DNA from: Candidatus Hydrogenedentota bacterium
GTDB taxonomy: Bacteria; Hydrogenedentota; Hydrogenedentia; Hydrogenedentales; SLHB01
Assembly (NCBI GenBank): GCA_046540175.1
Contig: JBKHFO010000001.1
Coordinates: 9,936 to 73,935, forward strand
Length of the DNA stretch: 64,000 nucleotides
Direction of reading: 5' to 3'
Shown: positions 9,804-18,162 of the stretch, in pieces
Layout of the letters: each line of letters starts with the position of its first letter
Position numbering within the stretch: the first letter of the stretch is position 1
Program-made: the position numbers and the translations under genes
The notes under the pieces: model-generated
The model's database searches: none
The model's input: only the letters and a program-made list of their open reading frames with translations
Told to the model about the DNA's origin: nothing

Positions 9804-10949
9804 TTATTCCCTTAAGCCTTGGTTGCGGAAGAGGTAAACGCCTTCCTTGCCCGGCGCGATGATGTCCTTCCAGCCGTTGCCCGTGATGTCCTCGACCCAG
9901 AAGTAAATTCCCGCGCCACTGGCTTCTTCCGGCGGACCGTAATCAATGGTGACGCGCTCGAAGGCGCCGCCGTTGATCTTGAAGTAATAGAGGCCGGCGG
10001 GATCGTCCGCGCCTGGGTCGGCCCCGTCATGCGCCCGGTAGCGCTTGCCGGTGATGAGGTCGAGGTCGCCATCGTTGTCAATGTCCGCCAGGCGGAGGTC
10101 GTGATACTGGGAGCGATCGGGGTCGATCATATGCTTTTCCCAGCTCCGGTTTCCTTCCTCATCCCGCTTCTGTTCCATCCAGTAGAGGCCGTAGTCATGG
10201 CCCTCGCCCACAATGAGGTCGTTGAGGCCGTCGCCATTGACGTCGTGGACCAAGATGGGCACGCTGGCCGAGCCCAGATCAAAGTCGGCGTGGAAGGGCC
10301 ATTCGTCTTCCATTGGATTCCCGGGGTGCTCGAACCAGCCATTGGCCGACACGATGTCGCCCCGGCCGTTGCCCGTTATATCGCCGAACCCTAGGCCGTG
10401 CCCCGTGTTCTGGTTACTAATGGTGTGTTCCTCGAACTCGCCGGTCCCCTGTCCGTCTTCATCGCGCACCAGCCGGAAGATGCGTTGCGGATTATTGGGC
10501 GTGTTGGGCGCGATCTCGACATGGCCGTCGCCGTTGATGTCCCAGAAGCATGGGCGTTCGACATTGCCTATCGTGGCGATGTCATGGGTTTCCCACTCCA
10601 CGGGCTCGCCTTCGGGATTCTCCCGCCATCGCACGCTTTCGTTAAACCACCCGCCCGTGACGATGTCCATGTAACCATCGCCATTCACGTCCATGGGATA
10701 GTCCGAGAATGAGTCGTAATATGTGCCCTCTTGCCGAATGTCCGTGATCTTGTGCGAGGTCTCGAAGTCCGGTCCTTCAAACCAGTACTCACCCGAAACG
10801 ATATCCATGACGCCATTGTTGTTGATGTCGACGGCCGAGGCGGTCTCGTAGGTCCCCTCTCCTAACTGCTGGCGCTCGAACCACACTTCGCCGTCGCCCT
10901 CCGGGGCCCCAAAGGCCGCCGCTGTCATCATGATCAAAGTGCCTACCAT
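9804..10949 (-). CDS. Secreted FG-GAP/VCBS-repeat beta-propeller protein
   Basis: Start trimmed to MVGTLIMMTAAAFGA (signal peptide; GAGGAG upstream). Repeats VDINNNGVMDIVSG, MDVNGDGYMDIVTG, WDINGDGHVEI, GDITGNGRGDIVS, HDVNGDGLNDLIVG, ADIDNDGDLDLITG and EDITGNGWKDII. The longer ORF-track version overlaps the next gene. Confidence 0.75.
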   Translation of the reverse strand: MVGTLIMMTAAAFGAPEGDGEVWFERQQLGEGTYETASAVDINNNGVMDIVSGEYWFEGPDFETSHKITDIRQEGTYYDSFSDYPMDVNGDGYMDIVTGGWFNESVRWRENPEGEPVEWETHDIATIGNVERPCFWDINGDGHVEIAPNTPNNPQRIFRLVRDEDGQGTGEFEEHTISNQNTGHGLGFGDITGNGRGDIVSANGWFEHPGNPMEDEWPFHADFDLGSASVPILVHDVNGDGLNDLIVGEGHDYGLYWMEQKRDEEGNRSWEKHMIDPDRSQYHDLRLADIDNDGDLDLITGKRYRAHDGADPGADDPAGLYYFKINGGAFERVTIDYGPPEEASGAGIYFWVEDITGNGWKDIIAPGKEGVYLFRNQGLRE

Positions 10950-11010
10950 TGGATGGATCTCCTCTCTAGTTGGGGCTTCCGCAGGCAAGGCCGCCTGCGC
11001 CAGGGGTGTT

Positions 11011-12387
11011 TCACTGCTCCGCCAGCCCGCACAGGAATCGAATGTAGGTTTCGATGCCCCGGAAGAAGTTGGGGAGATGGTGCTTCTCGTTTGGGCCGTG
11101 GATGCCGTCGCCGGGCATCGCGCAACCCAGCATGACCGTGTCCACCCCCAGCTTGGTCTGGAGCAAGTGAACGATGGGAATCGTTCCCCCTTCCCTTCGG
11201 AACACCGGCGGAACGCCAAACACGTCCTCCAACGCCTTTTGCGCCACCTTCATTGCCGGGGCGTGGCGGTCCATGATCGCGGCGGGCGCGTGGGTCATCT
11301 CCCGCACTTCCCACAAAACGGATTCCGGGGCGTTCCGCCGCATGTATTCGCAGAGTTGGCCGTAGACTTCGCCGCTATCCTGATCCGGCACGAGCCGCAT
11401 CGAAATCTTGGCCAAGGCCGTGGCGGGGAGAACGGTCTTGCTGCCGGTCCCCGTGAACCCGCTCACGAGACCGTTTACCTCGAGGGTGGGACGCGCGCCG
11501 ATCCGTTCAAGCACGGTGTAACCGCTTTCGCCCCAAAGCGCCGGAGCGCCGCTCATTTCCAGCCATTCCGTGTCGGAATGCGGCAATCTCGCCATGGATT
11601 CCCGTTCATCAGGCTCCAATTCGCGCACGTTGTCATAGAATCCCGGCAGGGTCACCCGGCCTTCCGCATCATGCATGCCCGCGATGAGTTCACACAAGGC
11701 CTGCGCCGGATTGTGGACGGCGCCGCCGAAGAGGCCGGAATGGAGGTCCTTTTCCGGACCGCGGACTTCAAGCTCAAAGTAGGCGAGACCCCGCAACGCA
11801 TAGGTGATGGCGGGCGTATCGGGCGCGTGGATGCCGGAATCGCAATTGAGCACCCCGTCGCAGCTTAGCATGTCCGAGTGGGCGTCGATAAAGGCGCCGA
11901 GATGAGGGGAGCCCACCTCCTCCTCGCCTTCGAGCAGAAACTTGATGTTGACAGGCAGTTCTCCTTGCGCGCTCAAGGCGTCCACGGCCCGCAAAATGGC
12001 GGTTATCTGGCCTTTCATATCGGACGCGCCCCGGGCATGAATGTCTTCCCCGCGGATGACAGGCTCGAACGGAGGGGAGTCCCATTCGTCCCACGGATCC
12101 GCGGGCTGGACATCGTAATGGCCGTAGATCAAGATGGTGGGCCGTCCTTCGGCGCCCAACCAGTGGCCATATACGATCGGATGGCCCTCGGTGGGGAAGA
12201 TCTCCACGTCCTCCATCCCCAGCCGGCGCAGTTCATCGGCGAGCCATTGCGCCGTGCGCTGCACGTCCGGGGCGTGTTCAGGCAGCGTGGAAATGCTTGG
12301 CATGCGCAAGAGCGCTTTAAGCTGTTCGAGGTGGGCCTCGCGCTGGGCGCGGGCGTATTGGCAAGCCTCTTCGGCAGGTGGCGGCAT
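11011..12387 (-). CDS. M20 family metallopeptidase (dipeptidase / ArgE-DapE-like)
   Basis: IYGHYDVQP, HARGASDMKG, EGEEEVGS and the overall M20 layout with a dimerisation insert. Confidence 0.85.
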   Translation of the reverse strand: MPPPAEEACQYARAQREAHLEQLKALLRMPSISTLPEHAPDVQRTAQWLADELRRLGMEDVEIFPTEGHPIVYGHWLGAEGRPTILIYGHYDVQPADPWDEWDSPPFEPVIRGEDIHARGASDMKGQITAILRAVDALSAQGELPVNIKFLLEGEEEVGSPHLGAFIDAHSDMLSCDGVLNCDSGIHAPDTPAITYALRGLAYFELEVRGPEKDLHSGLFGGAVHNPAQALCELIAGMHDAEGRVTLPGFYDNVRELEPDERESMARLPHSDTEWLEMSGAPALWGESGYTVLERIGARPTLEVNGLVSGFTGTGSKTVLPATALAKISMRLVPDQDSGEVYGQLCEYMRRNAPESVLWEVREMTHAPAAIMDRHAPAMKVAQKALEDVFGVPPVFRREGGTIPIVHLLQTKLGVDTVMLGCAMPGDGIHGPNEKHHLPNFFRGIETYIRFLCGLAEQ

Positions 12388-12489: not shown

Positions 12490-15400
12490 TTATCGTCTGT
12501 ATTCCGATGGGCCAAAAACAACGTATAGGCCCGCGGGCCGGTCGAGCGCGCTGAAGGTCTCTCTTTCAGCATTGAAGCGCGCGTCTTCCACCGGCCGCCA
12601 GCCGTCATTGGGGTGGTGGTAATAGAGTCGAAGCTCCTCCATATGCTCTTCGTCACACACCCCGGACGGCAAGCGCGCGCTTATGCTCGCGCGTACGCCG
12701 ATCCCCTCGGGATGATGCTCCAATCGCAGGTATTCGGTGAAGGCGGCCAGGCCTTCCGGAGGCGGCGAAGGCGGCTGGTTGGGAATAGCCACACGCGCTT
12801 GGATGGCGGTGTTGGCTTGCACATGGAACGTGGCCTGCATCTCAGGGGCCCTGACCTGAATGTTACGGCCCCATTGAACCGGGCCAACCGCTTTGTAATC
12901 CTCGTCGGGTTGACCGCCGGACGTTTCTTGTTCTTGCTGCGCCCGCAACCGGGCCGCCGCCTCTTTTCCTTCTTCGTCGGTGAACGCGAAGTGGCGCCGG
13001 GGCCCTTCTTGCGGCGAGCTGTCACCATCAGGCGTATACTGAATGACGGGATCCCGCTCTTCCTGACGATCTTGTTCCTCCGCTTGCGCTTGCCGGCGCT
13101 GCTCGGCCATGGCCTCGTCTTCGGGCCGGCTGAACTGCATGCGCTGCGGAGGGGCGGTCTCTTCGTCTTCCGGCGGCGTGTACTCAATGACGGGCTCCCG
13201 CTCGCCGGCTTCAGGCGTTCTGAACGCTTCCGCCTCCTCAGGCGGCTCCTGAGCGCCGGGTTCGGTGTCCGTGGGCTCATCGGGGAGTTGCGCCACCTGC
13301 TCGGGATCATCTTCGGCCATGGAATCCTCGCGTGGCGTCAGGATGGACCCCGTGCGGGGTGGCGTCAAGGTGTCTTCCCTATCCTCGTCCGGCTGGGTTG
13401 CCCCTTCAAACACACGAAAACGGCCGTCGTTCCGCAGACCCGTCAAGGACACCCCTTCTCTGGCCTCGCCGGCGGGTTCAATGTGCATGTGCGAGCCGCC
13501 CGGTTCTTCGGATTGTTCCTTGCCTTCGTCGTCCGTGAAAGGACTGACTTCTTCACCCGGCGCGACCGGTGGCGCGAGATCTTCCAGCCCGCCTTCCAGC
13601 GAGAAGGGACCGGCATGGTCTTCGGGATCGATCTCCATGGGTTCGGCGGGATCCCAATCGGGATCGCGCGGCGTCACGCCAAACCGGCTCTCCACCTCGA
13701 CCTCGGGCCTCCGGAGAAACGCGTCCGGTCCCAGGACGGCGAACGTCTTCGCGCCTTGCTCCCGCGCGGAAAGGGTGCGAATTTCCGATTGGTTGTCTTG
13801 AAGCTCGGCAGGCCGCCATTCGCCCGAGGCGTCACACACCCAAATCCCTAGATAGGGAAAATGGCGGCTGTCGGCCAATGTCTCCGGGATGAAGACATCG
13901 ACATTCACCATGAACGGCGCTTCAGCGCGCGCGGTCTCCAGTTCCGCGAACAGACTGAATGCGGCTAGCCCTTCCGGCAAGGGCGCGGGCGGTTCACTGG
14001 ACACGTCCAAACTCGCCACGATCGGCGTTTCGGCTCGAAGCTGGAATTGCGCTTCGATGCCTTGGGGGCGAAGCAGGATGTTACGGCCGACTGCGCGTTG
14101 CGCCGCCCGTTGCACTTCGTCGTGGCGGAAGCGCGTGCGTTTGAAGCGGCGATCGGTGAACAACTCGAACTGATCGTCGTAATGGGGAGAACGGGGGTCT
14201 TGAGACGTCCCAAAGGGAAGTATGCTCACTGCTTCGGGTGTTTCGCCGAATCGCACGGCCATCGCGTAGCCGTACCCTTTTTGCACGGGCCGGGGACTTG
14301 AATTGCTTGCGGTGGGCCGGTCGGAGAAGAAGATGCTCTCTCCCGAGGCTCCGCCGGGCAGGGGGGCGTTCTTATCGCCGCGTTGCGCGCGGTGCACATA
14401 TTCCCAGGGGACCGACAGGCTCTGGTGCTGGTTGCGCAGATGCTTGGCGGCTTCTCCCACCGCCCGCAGCGAGAGTTCTCGCATCGCCTCGCTATCCTCG
14501 CGAACGGCGGCGCGTAGGCGTTTTTCGTTGTGTAAGACAGGGGGCGCGATGGCCTTGAGCGCGCGCCACCACGCGTCGAAACAGGTCATTCCCACGCTGC
14601 TTGGCTCGGCCATGTAGTTCCAGTCCCGCAAAATGTTCAGGGCCGCCGGCACGTCGGGGTGAATACGCGTGAGGGCGTTCTGGTGCGCTTCTCCTGCTTG
14701 AAGCAAATGGGGCACGGCTTCCATGGCGAACGGCGCGGCTACGTCATAGAGCATGGACTGAATGTCGTGGAAATTGCGGGGAGAGCGCCCCAGCAGGCTC
14801 CGCACGCGCCGCGCGCGCGCCGTGTCCGCATCGCGCACGAACCAATAGGGGTAATCCGAGGGGGCAATGTCCGCGTTGTTGGTCGCGCCCCACGGCGGCG
14901 TGCCGCTGGCCTGGACAAAGCCCGCGCCTGGGTTGGTGAGGCTCGGCAAGGCGGATAGAGGGACAAGGGGCCCCCACCTGTACCGGGTGTCCCCGGAAGG
15001 CACAGGGCTTTGCCAGTCCACGAAATGGGGGTCCTCGTCTTCCTCGCCGCCGGGGTCGCTCCCTTCGATGATTCGAGTCTCTCCCTCGCTAAGCGAACCC
15101 ATGTATTTTGTGCCGACTGTGGCATTGTAAAGGTAAAAGATGTTGCCGGCCCGGTCGGCGTACACCACGTGGAATGAGGGGAGTTGCCGCATGGCCAGGG
15201 CTTCCTGGAACTCGCGCAGGTTGCGGGCCCGGCCCATCTCCATGAGCTGGCGGAGCCCACCCAACTCGGTGTAGCCCCCCACCTTGTACGAGACTTGCCG
15301 TCCCCGGAACGTCCCCACCACCGGTCCGCGCGGAGTATGAACCTGCTGCACGTGACGCTCCGCGAAACCGGTAGGCGTTCGAACCGTAAAGGGGACGGTA

Positions 15401-16267
15401 TGCGCGAGATCTTGCAGTTCTTGTAATAACTCGAAATCGATTTGCGGCTGGTTGACTTGCGCCGGATTGTGGGCTACCTGGGGGGGCCTTTCAATATACA
15501 TGTCCCCGATATCGGGCTCATTCGGCGCCAGCCCCCATCCCAAGACTTCGTTGTGACCCTGCAAGAGAATGGGCAACCCGAAAACGGTTGCTCCCGCCAC
15601 GTTCATGTCTTGGGTGACGAGATGCGCTTCATACCACTGGAACGGCCCGCCATAATCCCCATGCGGGTTGATGGCGAGAAGCGCCTCGCCCGTGACGGAA
15701 TGCGCGCCGCTGACGGCCCATGCGTTGGCCGAGGGCATGGCCGGAGAACGGTGGTAGACATCGGGCAGATCGAACGGCGCCGTGGTCATGAGGAACGCGT
15801 GCAAGAGCGCAAGGATGTCTTGAGGCCGCACGCCTTCCGCCCACGTGGGCGCTTCCTCATGATGCTCGGAGAGCCAGCTATTGACGCCAAGGGCGAAGCC
15901 TTCGCACAACTGCCGGGTGATGGGATCGGCCTCTTGATACGCCCTCCGAGCGAGCGCGGCGTGGCCCATCTTCAGCGAAAACGCATCGGATTCCGCGTAG
16001 GACTCGCCCATTACCTCGGCCGCTCCGCCATTGGCAATGCGATACGCCATGAGCATCTCTTCGAGATGGTCTTCCGCCTGCGCGTACCCGAACGCGAAGG
16101 CCATGGCGCGGGGCGTGTCGCCGTAGACGTGGGGCGTTCCCCATTCATCCCGGTACAGCGTCGCTTGGGCCCACAGATCGTTTGGCTGGGCCGCCGCGCC
16201 TGCATCCCACGATGTGAGCGTCGTGACGGCTATCAAAAGTCCCAACAGGACTTTGGAAGTATCGGGC
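12490..16267 (-). CDS. Penicillin/AHL acylase family (Ntn hydrolase, S45) fused to a roughly 550-aa acidic Pro/Glu/Asp-rich C-terminal extension with a duplicated domain
   Basis: Signal peptide MPDTSKVLLGLLIAVTTLTSWDAGAAAQ. HVYGDTPRAMAFAFGYAQAEDHLEEM (acylase alpha subunit). SNAWAVSG is the beta-subunit N-terminal nucleophile Ser motif. C-terminal repeats VIEYTPPEDEE / VIQYTPDGDSS, PFTDDEGKE / FAFTDEEGKE and two PPxPxPEGLAAF-containing roughly 120-aa segments. Confidence 0.8.
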
Positions 16268-16506
16268 ATAATCTCGTGAACACCCTTGTTGTACATAAAC
16301 CTCCACTCGCTGCTTCTCCAGCGCTTACTAATGGGGCAAATTGTAGCATGCGGAAGGCGCGAGGGTCATCTTCCCCATGGCCGCCCCGTGCGAAACACAA
16401 GGTTGAACCGTGCCGCGCGGACCCTTATAGTGAGAGCAATCATCTGTCCTCTGCCGCTGGACCGGTGGATGGCGATACATCGGCTTGAACCAAGGAGCTT
16501 ATACCA

Positions 16507-18162
16507 ATGAACGAGAACGACCACAGTCTGCAGAGCCTTGCGGCTCCGCTGGCCAATCCCACCCGGCGCCGTTTCTTGCAGTCCATGCTCGCGGGCGGAG
16601 CCGCTTTCGTCGTGGGCCAGCCCGCCAACGCGCAGGAGACGTCCTATGCGGAGGGCGTTGTGTTTCACGACCGCAACGGCTCGGGCGTGCGTGAAGAAGG
16701 CGATCCCGGCGTGCCCGAAGTCCGTGTATCGAACGGCCGGGATGTCACCGTGACCGACGAGGAGGGACGGTGGCGGCTGCCTCTTGACGGGGACCGCACC
16801 GTCTTTTTCGTCATCAAGCCCAGCGGATGGCGCGCTCCGTTGAACGGCGATAACCTGCCTCAATTTCACTATATTCACGACCCCGAGGGTTCGCCCGAGT
16901 TGGAATATGAAGGCATCGCGCCCACGGGGACCTTGCCGGATTCCATCGATTTCCCGTTGGAGCCGCAAGAGGAGCCCAGCGAATTGCGGGTGTTGATGTG
17001 CGGCGATCCTCAGCCACGCAACGGCCGGGAGGTGGCGTACATCGCGCAAAGCGCCGTGCCGGAGCTGGCCGAGGCCGAGGCGGATTTTGGCGTGAGCCTT
17101 GGCGACATTATGTTCGATAACCTCGAGTATTACGGGCCGTTGAATGCCGCGATGGGGTTGGCGGGCAAGCCCTGGTACAACCTGCTGGGCAATCACGATT
17201 TGAACTTCGATGTTCCGGACAACGAACACGCCAACGACACCTTCATCCGCGTATACGGTCCGACGTACTACGCGTTTGAATACGGTCCCGTTCATTTCAT
17301 CGTACTGAACAATATCGACTGGATGGGAGCAACGGAGGAAGGCGGCACGGGCAACTACCGCGGGAGACTGGGGGAGCGTCAAATCGAATTCGTGCGAAAC
17401 GAGCTGGAACATGTGCCGCAGGACAAGCTCAGCGTCATCATGATGCATATCCCCCTGGACTCGCCGGATACGGAGGCAGAAGGCAGCAACACCGTGGATC
17501 GCGAAGACCTCTACCGCATCATCGAGGACAGGCCCAACCTGCTGACGCTTTCGGCTCATCGCCACCTGCACGGGCACTTCATGTTGGACGAGGAAAATGG
17601 TTGGCGAGGCGACAACCCGTTGCATCACATCATCATGGGGACCTTGTGCGGCAGCTGGTTCCGGGGCGCGCCGAATGAGCAGGGCGTGCCCGTGGCGATG
17701 ATGGCGGATGGCACGCCGAGAGGCTGCGGGATGTTCAGATTCGCGGACCAGCACTACTCAATGGACGGTTACAAGGTGTTCGGCGCCGGGGCGGACCATC
17801 AGATGCATATCGAGGCCCCCAACGTGGTCGCACGTGACGAGGTCGAAGAAACCGGCGTGTACGTCAACGTGTACAACGGCTGCGAGCGTTCCGAAGTGCG
17901 TTTCCGCGCGGGGAGCGATGGAGCGTGGCGTGACATGGACCGCACGGTCGAGCCCGATCCCCGCTACGTATGGCTTTATGAGCGCGATCAAGACGTGGAG
18001 TCTCCGTACCTTTCCCCCAGTGATCCGTATAACTGCTATCACCTATGGCGGATCAACCTGCCCGCCGATCTCCCCGAAGGGACCCATATGCTCGAAGTGG
18101 AAGCCACGGACAGGTTCGGCAACGTTCACCGGGGCGCGCGTCCGATGCGCGTGACGGCCTGA
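16507..18162 (+). CDS. Tat-secreted calcineurin-like metallophosphoesterase
   Basis: RRRFLQSMLAGGAAFVVGQPANAQ Tat signal. MCGDPQ, GDIMFD, LGNHDL and HRHLHGHF metal-binding motifs. Confidence 0.85.
   Translation: MNENDHSLQSLAAPLANPTRRRFLQSMLAGGAAFVVGQPANAQETSYAEGVVFHDRNGSGVREEGDPGVPEVRVSNGRDVTVTDEEGRWRLPLDGDRTVFFVIKPSGWRAPLNGDNLPQFHYIHDPEGSPELEYEGIAPTGTLPDSIDFPLEPQEEPSELRVLMCGDPQPRNGREVAYIAQSAVPELAEAEADFGVSLGDIMFDNLEYYGPLNAAMGLAGKPWYNLLGNHDLNFDVPDNEHANDTFIRVYGPTYYAFEYGPVHFIVLNNIDWMGATEEGGTGNYRGRLGERQIEFVRNELEHVPQDKLSVIMMHIPLDSPDTEAEGSNTVDREDLYRIIEDRPNLLTLSAHRHLHGHFMLDEENGWRGDNPLHHIIMGTLCGSWFRGAPNEQGVPVAMMADGTPRGCGMFRFADQHYSMDGYKVFGAGADHQMHIEAPNVVARDEVEETGVYVNVYNGCERSEVRFRAGSDGAWRDMDRTVEPDPRYVWLYERDQDVESPYLSPSDPYNCYHLWRINLPADLPEGTHMLEVEATDRFGNVHRGARPMRVTA

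Follow-up and report, generated by a model that had tools for sequence, protein, structure and literature searches.

The penicillin-acylase family (Pfam PF01804) of N-terminal nucleophile (Ntn) hydrolases includes the class I cephalosporin acylases (CA), or glutaryl-7-ACA acylases, of Pseudomonas (PDB 1fm2, 1keh, 1or0 and 4e55). Known class I CA are ~690-720 aa long, are laid out as an alpha chain (~150 aa) and a beta chain (~540 aa) with a short spacer, and carry no C-terminal domains. Their nucleophile is the first residue of the beta chain, Ser1-beta, within G↓S-N-S-W (the arrow marks cleavage), and the side chain of an Asn in a Q-N-S-N-D segment is an element of the oxyanion hole (PMC6712217, PMC5474475); in PvdQ, the catalytic set consists of Ser-beta1, His-beta23, Val-beta70 and Asn-beta269 (PMC5474475). 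PvdQ, QuiP and MacQ belong to the same Pfam family and have a secreted, heterodimer-type layout. ZU5 domains, on the other hand, are known from ankyrin and UNC5 as protein-binding modules. ZU5, GPS and Nup98 were united as an autopeptidase superfamily by Zhang et al. 2012 (PMC3482391), who also reported that ZU5 occurs in bacterial surface proteins alongside glycohydrolase, lipase and phosphodiesterase domains, and proposed that autoproteolytic processing is a general feature. Here we analysed a 64,000-nt stretch of DNA from a Candidatus Hydrogenedentota bacterium (contig JBKHFO010000001.1; hereafter the window) and describe one of its genes, which encodes a putatively secreted acylase-family protein of 1268 aa. 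Its penicillin-acylase core, in which two canonical catalytic residues are replaced, is followed by two copies of a previously undescribed ~133-aa domain, here called D, with a predicted ZU5-like fold.

A penicillin-acylase core followed by a duplicated domain

The gene is a single uninterrupted reading frame (Table 1), the 3' part of which (residues ~700-1268) corresponds to the span 12490-14200 that was singled out in the original prediction, made from the letters of the window alone. The penicillin-acylase-family core with a long extra tail foreseen there was recovered: PF01804 matched with 376.6 bits against a cutoff of 21.3 and over profile positions 2-674 of 675, leaving a tail of 539 aa. 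Known acylases are indeed shorter, with characterised PDB chains and precursors of 689-824 aa, and the best solved relatives of the core were the class I CA (E ~1e-49, residues 49-729). The tail is made up of two D copies, D1 and D2, and a 270-aa linker. D1 and D2 correspond to the two related segments noticed earlier and aligned by BLASTP without gaps at 32% identity over 126 aa (E 7e-17), a similarity far beyond chance, with EGLAAF at residues 775 and 1181 and WRP at residues 827 and 1233. No credible family was found when the tail (residues 730-1268) and 60 D copies were compared with Pfam and the tail with NCBIfam, and PDB sequences searched with a profile of the D alignment gave no match at E ≤ 10. 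A match to RPC5 was rejected, being below the cutoff (E 0.004-0.014) and sitting in the low-complexity linker.

The same full-length layout was present in independent assemblies (82-84% identity over 99-100% of the length), two of which encode 84%-identical proteins spanning residues 1-1268 and 7-1268, and a database protein differing by a few residues is labelled 'penicillin acylase family protein' in a Candidatus Hydrogenedentota metagenome-assembled genome (MAG). A frameshift or an assembly artefact fusing an acylase with a separate downstream gene, a danger already named in the original prediction, is therefore excluded. The frame is continuous, over 100 clusters, drawn from many independent assemblies, show this layout, and D1 starts directly after the Pfam core with no gap, so that the chance of such an artefact is practically nil and this is one intact gene. 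The N-terminus, read by eye from the translation, resembles a Sec signal peptide, with a basic/polar start (MPDTSK), a hydrophobic stretch (VLLGLLIAVTTLT) and AGAAA↓Q, which suggests that the protein is exported.

D is predicted to adopt a ZU5-like fold

In an alignment of 60 diverse D copies (A1), W98 was invariant and G8, P45, G47, L87, G97, Y123, L126, G127 and P128 were near-invariant, within the consensus ...PPAPLPxGLAAF[TS]...L.LYAYD...GW..L..Q...R.YAVLGP. Using A1, AlphaFold2 (AF2) modelled D2 as a confident all-beta sandwich (predicted local distance difference test (pLDDT) of 95.4, predicted template-modelling score (pTM) of 0.88). The best fold matches were ZU5, GAIN and FIIND domains, the ZU5 of UNC5b included, and Foldseek independently placed ZU5 entries first (E 4e-4, TM ~0.6); the modelled D is a beta-sandwich of ZU5 type. 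Among the viral structures of BFVD, one uncharacterised phage protein was matched (E 4e-4) and the search was otherwise uninformative. The Pfam ZU5 model matched neither the tail nor any of the 60 D copies at E ≤ 1, and the identity of D to the ZU5 domains of ankyrin and UNC5 was 6-14%. As no sequence method links D to ZU5, we call D 'ZU5-like by fold' only and do not claim homology. Whereas the ankyrin and UNC5 domains are eukaryotic and cytoplasmic, D is bacterial, presumably secreted, and fused to an enzyme.

Many relatives of this fold are self-cleaving, among them the GAIN/GPS domains of adhesion G-protein-coupled receptors (GPCRs), the FIIND of NLRP1 and CARD8, PIDD and the bacterial ZU5 'releasing peptidases' of polymorphic toxins. 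D could likewise be a ZU5-type autopeptidase that cuts the chain and so sets the acylase free of the tail or the cell surface. The last strand of D, Y-A-V-L-G, resembles the F-A-V-L-M strand that follows the GPS cleavage site of GAIN domains, and a well conserved [FY]51-[TS]52 pair follows a Pro-rich loop in the middle of D (185/197 and 188/197 copies, respectively). The fold matches themselves point in the same direction, as do the bacterial surface ZU5 proteins with hydrolase domains for which processing was proposed (Zhang et al. 2012, PMC3482391). However, column frequencies showed that the His-[Phe/Leu]-[Ser/Thr]-type (or thiol) motif of the self-cleaving domains is absent at the last strand of D. 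The turn before this strand, where ZU5, GPS and FIIND cleave, has the consensus D-x-x-x-R-x-Y-A-V-L-G-P with no conserved His or Ser/Thr/Cys, the [FY][TS] pair lies mid-domain and away from the C-terminal site, and the Pfam ZU5 model is silent on tail and D copies alike. Unlike the ZU5 domains of polymorphic toxins, D is also not found together with modules of the RHS, SpvB or toxin kind. Because the turn carries no conserved His or nucleophile, we regard D as a non-cleaving version of ZU5 and an autopeptidase as distinctly unlikely. Judged from the model, the fold of D is closest to the ZU5/GAIN-subdomain-B/FIIND superfamily, in a form without the autoproteolytic motif.

The acylase-D architecture is the rule in a Hydrogenedentota-wide subfamily

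Homologue counts refer throughout to the 120 proteins listed among 464 relatives from a database search. They are 854-1347 aa long (median 1082), and those that are named belong mostly to Hydrogenedentes/-ota. A hidden Markov model (HMM) of D, built from the two tail segments and then rebuilt from 198 copies, detected D in all 120, with one copy in 43, two in 66 and three in 11. The first D always abuts the acylase core (start at residue ~670-760), the last D is usually at the extreme C-terminus where there are several copies, and the segments between D copies span 39-389 aa. A scan of genomes, one per species, with the full-length alignment as query returned 267 relatives, and the best 80, whose labels were read, came mostly from Candidatus Hydrogenedentota MAGs. 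Most other labels among these 80 were 'uncultured Nitrospirales/Nitrospiraceae' or 'uncultured bacterium' from bulk submissions, with one Bathyarchaeia; the Nitrospirales/Nitrospiraceae and Bathyarchaeia labels are probably issues of taxonomic labelling or binning and not true occurrences outside the phylum. The Nitrospirales/Nitrospiraceae labels are those of loci L012, L013, L015, L017, L030, L039, L041 and others (bulk third-party annotation submissions), and the Bathyarchaeia label is that of L044. An acylase core with a D tail is the rule for a large Hydrogenedentota-wide subfamily, and the distribution is centred on this phylum. The architecture, which the original prediction had called unusual, is thus ordinary there. 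It had also been foreseen that homologues might commonly carry the same extension as a described domain; the extension is common, but the domain itself is undescribed. A limited literature search found no paper joining Hydrogenedentes with an acylase.

Only 124 proteins with D at E ≤ 1e-3 emerged when 1.84 billion cluster representatives were searched exhaustively with the profile. Most long matches have D at residue ~700, the position typical of the acylases, and short ones (43-500 aa) may be contig-truncated fragments. Ten weaker matches were scanned with Pfam and comprised four acylases, four proteins without a Pfam match, and P0204 and P0222. P0204 (636 aa) combines a weak D match at residues 54-172 with a weak Peptidase_M28 match and no acylase, P0222 has Amidase_6 and NHL repeats (D E-value 8e-4), and P0220 (1273 aa), one of the four acylases, has a weak D match, a weak Peptidase_M28 match and an acylase core of canonical type. 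D or a relative may therefore be used on other secreted hydrolases too. Overall, D is essentially confined to this acylase family, and no copy was found elsewhere in the window.

This distribution bears on whether the C-terminal D could act as a signal for secretion or sorting, similar to the C-terminal domain of type IX secretion and possibly removed during export. Beta-sandwich C-terminal sorting domains occur in other phyla, and most homologues with more than one D end in a D copy. Nevertheless, no NCBIfam or Pfam sorting-domain model matches, D is also internal and fused to the core in every member, 43 of the 120 have no C-terminal D, and D is found on ~124 cluster representatives that are mostly acylases and not on many secreted proteins. 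We consider a sorting signal very unlikely.

The nearest neighbour of a last-copy D was another last copy in 71 of 73 cases, so that first and last copies form separate similarity groups, and within one protein they share on average 28% identity (range 18-38%). The duplication is therefore old and took place before the family radiated. Relative to the closest relatives, D1 and D2 are 87-90% identical (D1 alone 88-90%) and the core 86-89%, whereas the linker is 73-77% identical and falls to ~30% with 62 gaps in the next relative. As D is as conserved as the core while the linker diverges, selection acts on the D domains and much less on the linker sequence.

Canonical nucleophile and oxyanion residues are replaced in the core

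The core resembles the class I CA in its alpha/beta layout, in which the short spacer region before position 189/190 is the only sequence hint of alpha/beta maturation, and it keeps His23-beta (in N-P-H), Asn-beta2 and Trp-beta4. The SNAW string that the original prediction placed at the beta-subunit nucleophile is absent, and the local sequence is P-S189-A190-N191-A-W. Residue 1 of the beta chains of CA, PvdQ, PGA and another acylase, the Ser nucleophile, aligned on Ala190 and not on Ser189, and residue 2 (Asn) of the same chains aligned on Asn191. Position 190 is Gly in 91 and Ala in 29 homologues and never Ser, position 189 is Ser in 76 and Thr in 44, and both Asn191 and His212 (His-beta23 of the N-P-H motif) are invariant (120/120). 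The canonical Ser-beta1 followed by Asn (G/T↓S-N-x-W) of PF01804 acylases is thus missing. Equally, F-V-Q-N242-S-N244-D-P-P-W of the CA beta chain aligned without gaps with F-V-Q-A463-S464-G465-T-P-P-W, which puts Ala463 in the place of Asn242-beta and Gly465 in that of Asn244-beta, and the oxyanion-hole Asn (Asn244-beta in class I CA, Asn242-beta in N176 CA, Asn269-beta in PvdQ) is missing as well. The family consensus at this segment is Q-A-C-G, with Cys464 in 111 of the 120 (Ser in the window protein) and Gly465 in 115. Species-representative genomes gave a similar picture: of 70 scorable proteins, 65 have [ST][GA]N...H and 51 have Q-A-C-G. The distant D-bearing acylases P0215, P0220 and P0205 retain the Asn of the oxyanion segment; P0215 and P0220 also retain the canonical S-N, and P0205 is N-terminally truncated at that site. 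As both features are retained wherever the region is present, the nucleophile and oxyanion changes appear to be correlated. Position 189 is Ala, Lys, Leu, Phe, Arg or Gln, or the N-P-H His is missing, in P0127, P0134, P0137, P0143, P0166, P0168 and P0176, and further members without Ser/Thr189 or this His are found at loci L057, L058, L071, L075 and L082.

These substitutions could be read in three ways. The nucleophile may have shifted by one residue with the oxyanion hole rebuilt, Cys464 may have acquired a new role, or catalysis may have been partly or wholly lost, and any catalytic activity of the core is putative. We know of no reported active-site register shift of an Ntn hydrolase within PF01804, and a search of the literature on Ntn-hydrolase pseudoenzymes, which was not thorough, found nothing relevant to a nucleophile shift in this family.

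The proposal that this is a quorum-quenching-type acylase found no support in closer comparison. The NCBIfam PvdQ equivalog model (NF051460) scored 103.7 bits against a cutoff of 950, the PvdQ catalytic set is only partly present, with the Ser nucleophile and the oxyanion Asn replaced, and PvdQ, QuiP and MacQ are without ZU5-like domains. Several homologues have been named 'acyl-homoserine-lactone acylase' by JGI pipelines. Because two canonical catalytic residues are systematically replaced, both this label, acyl-homoserine lactone (AHL) acylase, and the label penicillin acylase are unsafe.

The linker is predicted to be disordered and varies across the family

The linker holds 27.7% Asp+Glu (18% Glu, 9.6% Asp) and 12.6% Pro and has a net charge of -51, which agrees with the acidic E/D/P low-complexity segment described earlier, and the short internal repeats reported with it are present (VIEYTP at residue 1036, VIQYTP at 1084, FTDDEGKE at 920 and FTDEEGKE at 1105). 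Four short two-copy direct repeats were detected in the tail DNA, of which the 29-nt pair (90% identical, spaced 144 nt) is the meaningful one; a tandem repeat finder detected no tandem arrays in the tail DNA, and self-BLAST of the linker gave no significant protein-level repeats other than the short motifs. We rejected F-x-D-[DE]-E-G and [VI]-I-x-Y-[TS]-P as family motifs, since both are limited to the 82-84% relatives.

The tail (residues 700-1268) was modelled by AF2 from a shallow alignment of 14 sequences (A3) with the core absent. D1 and D2 were predicted with pLDDT 80-94, and residues 866-1055 with pLDDT 30-48. A charged 22-residue helix at residues 1058-1079 may be a single helix and hence a stiffer spacer, and a weaker helix was predicted at residues 1109-1124. 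RRHFAFTDEEG, which was not predicted to be structured, aligns with KRGVVFSGQTP, RHGVVWSDQSP and KRAIWSMESP of relatives at ~35-40 aa upstream of the last D (A3 columns ~520-530). Motifs of the form [RK][RK]-x-hydrophobic-x-hydrophobic were five-fold enriched in linkers and tails (27 observed, 5.2 ± 2.3 in shuffles). Near the C-termini of single-D relatives, [KR][KR]N[FY]x[FL] was seen.

Linkers of the family are rich in Pro (18.5%), Ala (13.8%) and Glu (10.6%), and across 114 of them the net charge per residue lies between -0.31 and +0.08 (median -0.05; window protein -0.19). The acidic linker might itself be functional, as a Ca2+/metal-binding or a mineral/surface-binding polyanion, which is close to the cation-binding module of the original prediction. 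The window protein would suit such a role, its strongly charged linker being the third longest of the 114 and among the more acidic, yet acidity is not a property of the family, the sequence is not conserved beyond the 82-84% relatives, no known family of Ca-binding motifs was matched in Pfam or NCBIfam, and the linker is predicted to be disordered. Strong acidity is a feature of this lineage, which disfavours a conserved cation-binding role, and a functional polyanion seems highly improbable. The models and alignments describe instead a linker that is predicted to be disordered, is fast-evolving and is variable in length.

D domains as possible binding modules on a flexible tether

We give about an even chance to the reading that the D domains serve in binding or targeting while carried on a flexible tether. 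In this scheme, a secreted protein would be built on the penicillin-acylase (Ntn-hydrolase) core, with D1, fused without a linker, probably a fixed appendage and D2 displayed at the extreme C-terminus on a 270-aa disordered and strongly acidic tether. The D domains would be non-catalytic binding modules, like the non-cleaving ZU5 domains of ankyrin and UNC5, and the disordered linker a flexible and evolutionarily plastic spacer, with strong acidity as a trait of this lineage. Through D2, the enzyme would be held on, or brought to, a partner on the cell surface or associated with the substrate, with the core acting at a distance. The arrangement is reminiscent of extracellular hydrolases with Pro/Thr-rich linkers and carbohydrate-binding modules, which similarly combine a catalytic core, a disordered variable linker and one or more small beta-sandwich modules; in both, the number of modules and the length of the linker differ from one orthologue to the next. 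Surface tethering, also considered in the original prediction, or binding would be a reasonable reading.

Alternatively, the tail could be an intramolecular regulator, in which D2 folds onto D1 or onto the active-site cleft and keeps the enzyme closed until a partner displaces it. The ZU5-UPA-DD region of UNC5b forms a closed, autoinhibited supramodule, and the ZU5 of UNC5b is among the fold matches of D. D2 is kept at the C-terminus on a tether that could reach any part of the core, and D1 and D2, as paralogues, could pair. However, the AF2 tail model had a pTM of 0.33 and so predicts no fixed arrangement of D1 and D2 (from the shallow alignment without the core), a single D is present in 43 of the 120 homologues, and tether length varies tenfold, which would be unusual for a precise intramolecular latch. 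Autoinhibition is therefore unlikely.

Taking core and tail together, we tentatively propose, as a possibility well short of an even chance, that this family is a re-wired branch of the penicillin acylases, with the nucleophile moved to Ser/Thr189 or with catalysis taken over by, or lost to, Cys464, and that D is a bacterial, non-cleaving lineage of the ZU5/GAIN fold serving as tethered binding modules on a secreted enzyme. Several observations weigh against the scheme of a tethered enzyme with binding modules. The core lacks, by alignment, the canonical Ser-beta1 and oxyanion Asn, Ser/Thr189 is absent in 9 of about 176 sequences and His212 in some; some lineages may therefore be non-catalytic, and the protein is possibly no conventional hydrolase. 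The conserved residues of D (W98, G97, P45, G47, L87, Y123 and L126-G127-P128) look mostly structural, and a binding surface could not be picked out for this reason. Nor is a D at the C-terminus obligatory, since single-D homologues carry 19-243 aa after D with no second copy. Finally, the four family loci that were compared have no common neighbours that might point to a binding partner or substrate.

Sequence features and gene neighbourhood

Table 1 Features of the acylase-family gene in the window. Residue numbers refer to the 1268-aa protein.
Feature	Position (nt)	Strand	Basis
Whole gene, secreted acylase-family protein (putative), 1268 aa	12490..16296, stop codon included	-	ORF list
Promoter-like site, extended -10	16340-16369	-	Consensus scan; consensus match only
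Shine-Dalgarno GGAGG	16300-16304	-	Sequence read; consensus match only
Signal-peptide-like segment, aa 1-~36	16189..16296	-	Read from translation, cleavage site inferred
Ntn-hydrolase core, Penicil_amidase PF01804, aa 45-729	14110..16164	-	Pfam E 4.8e-112
Non-canonical nucleophile site S189-A190-N191	15724..15732	-	Alignment to CA, PvdQ and PGA beta chains
Q462-A-S-G-T466 in place of the canonical Q-N-S-N-D oxyanion-hole segment	14899..14913	-	Gapless alignment to CA beta chain
D1, first ~133-aa ZU5-like beta-sandwich copy (predicted), aa 730-865, fused directly to core	13702..14109	-	Domain HMM; pLDDT 80-94
Acidic Pro/Glu/Asp-rich linker, aa 866-1135, mostly predicted disordered	12892..13701	-	Composition, pLDDT
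29-nt direct repeat pair, 13031-13059 / 13175-13203	13031..13203	-	Encodes ERDPVIQYTP / EREPVIEYTP
Glu/Arg/Gln-rich alpha-helix inside linker (predicted), aa 1058-1079	13060..13125	-	AF2 model residues 359-380, pLDDT 72-80
Basic/hydrophobic motif RRHFAFTDEEG, aa 1100-1110, ~35 aa upstream of D2	12967..12999	-	Alignment A3
D2, second, C-terminal ZU5-like copy (predicted), aa 1136-1268	12493..12891	-	

The ATG at 16296 is preceded by the GGAGG at a distance of 3 nt, with the promoter-like site ~45 nt further upstream. A gene for an M20-family peptidase/dipeptidase (11011-12387, minus strand, 458 aa), cytoplasmic-looking with no obvious signal peptide, starts 102 nt downstream of the acylase stop codon on the same strand, and no site resembling a terminator separates the two. 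The same gene order is found in the closest relative, but the pairing is absent from the three other family loci, and gene neighbourhood was rejected as a clue to function on the ground that no neighbour is common to the four loci. Nor did any of the four show AHL-related genes nearby. A second M20 gene is nearby in the matching MAG contig. The divergent upstream gene (16507-18162, plus strand) encodes a secreted-looking metallophosphoesterase (MetallophosN/C) with a Tat-like RRRFLQS N-terminus, and an FG-GAP/VCBS-repeat protein is encoded downstream (9804-11219, minus strand). Several exported hydrolase-type proteins thus cluster around the acylase gene, with no conserved operon.

Conclusions

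While the architecture is ordinary within the phylum, D is undescribed and the link to the ZU5 fold is unexpected for a secreted bacterial enzyme; a limited literature search found nothing on D, its fold link or the core substitutions. The analysis adds a previously undescribed ~133-aa domain family with a ZU5-like fold, which is found almost exclusively in a single enzyme family of an uncultured phylum. D would add a secreted bacterial and apparently non-cleaving representative to a fold whose most familiar examples are animal ankyrins, netrin receptors, adhesion GPCRs and inflammasome sensors. If Ser/Thr189 is the N-terminal nucleophile, this would be a register shift of the Ntn active site within PF01804, of interest to enzymologists and acylase engineers, and if the re-wired core and the non-cleaving D both hold, the active-site solution and the domain family would each be new. 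As the gene is near-universal in the phylum, its substrate could inform on how Hydrogenedentota feed or interact with their surroundings.

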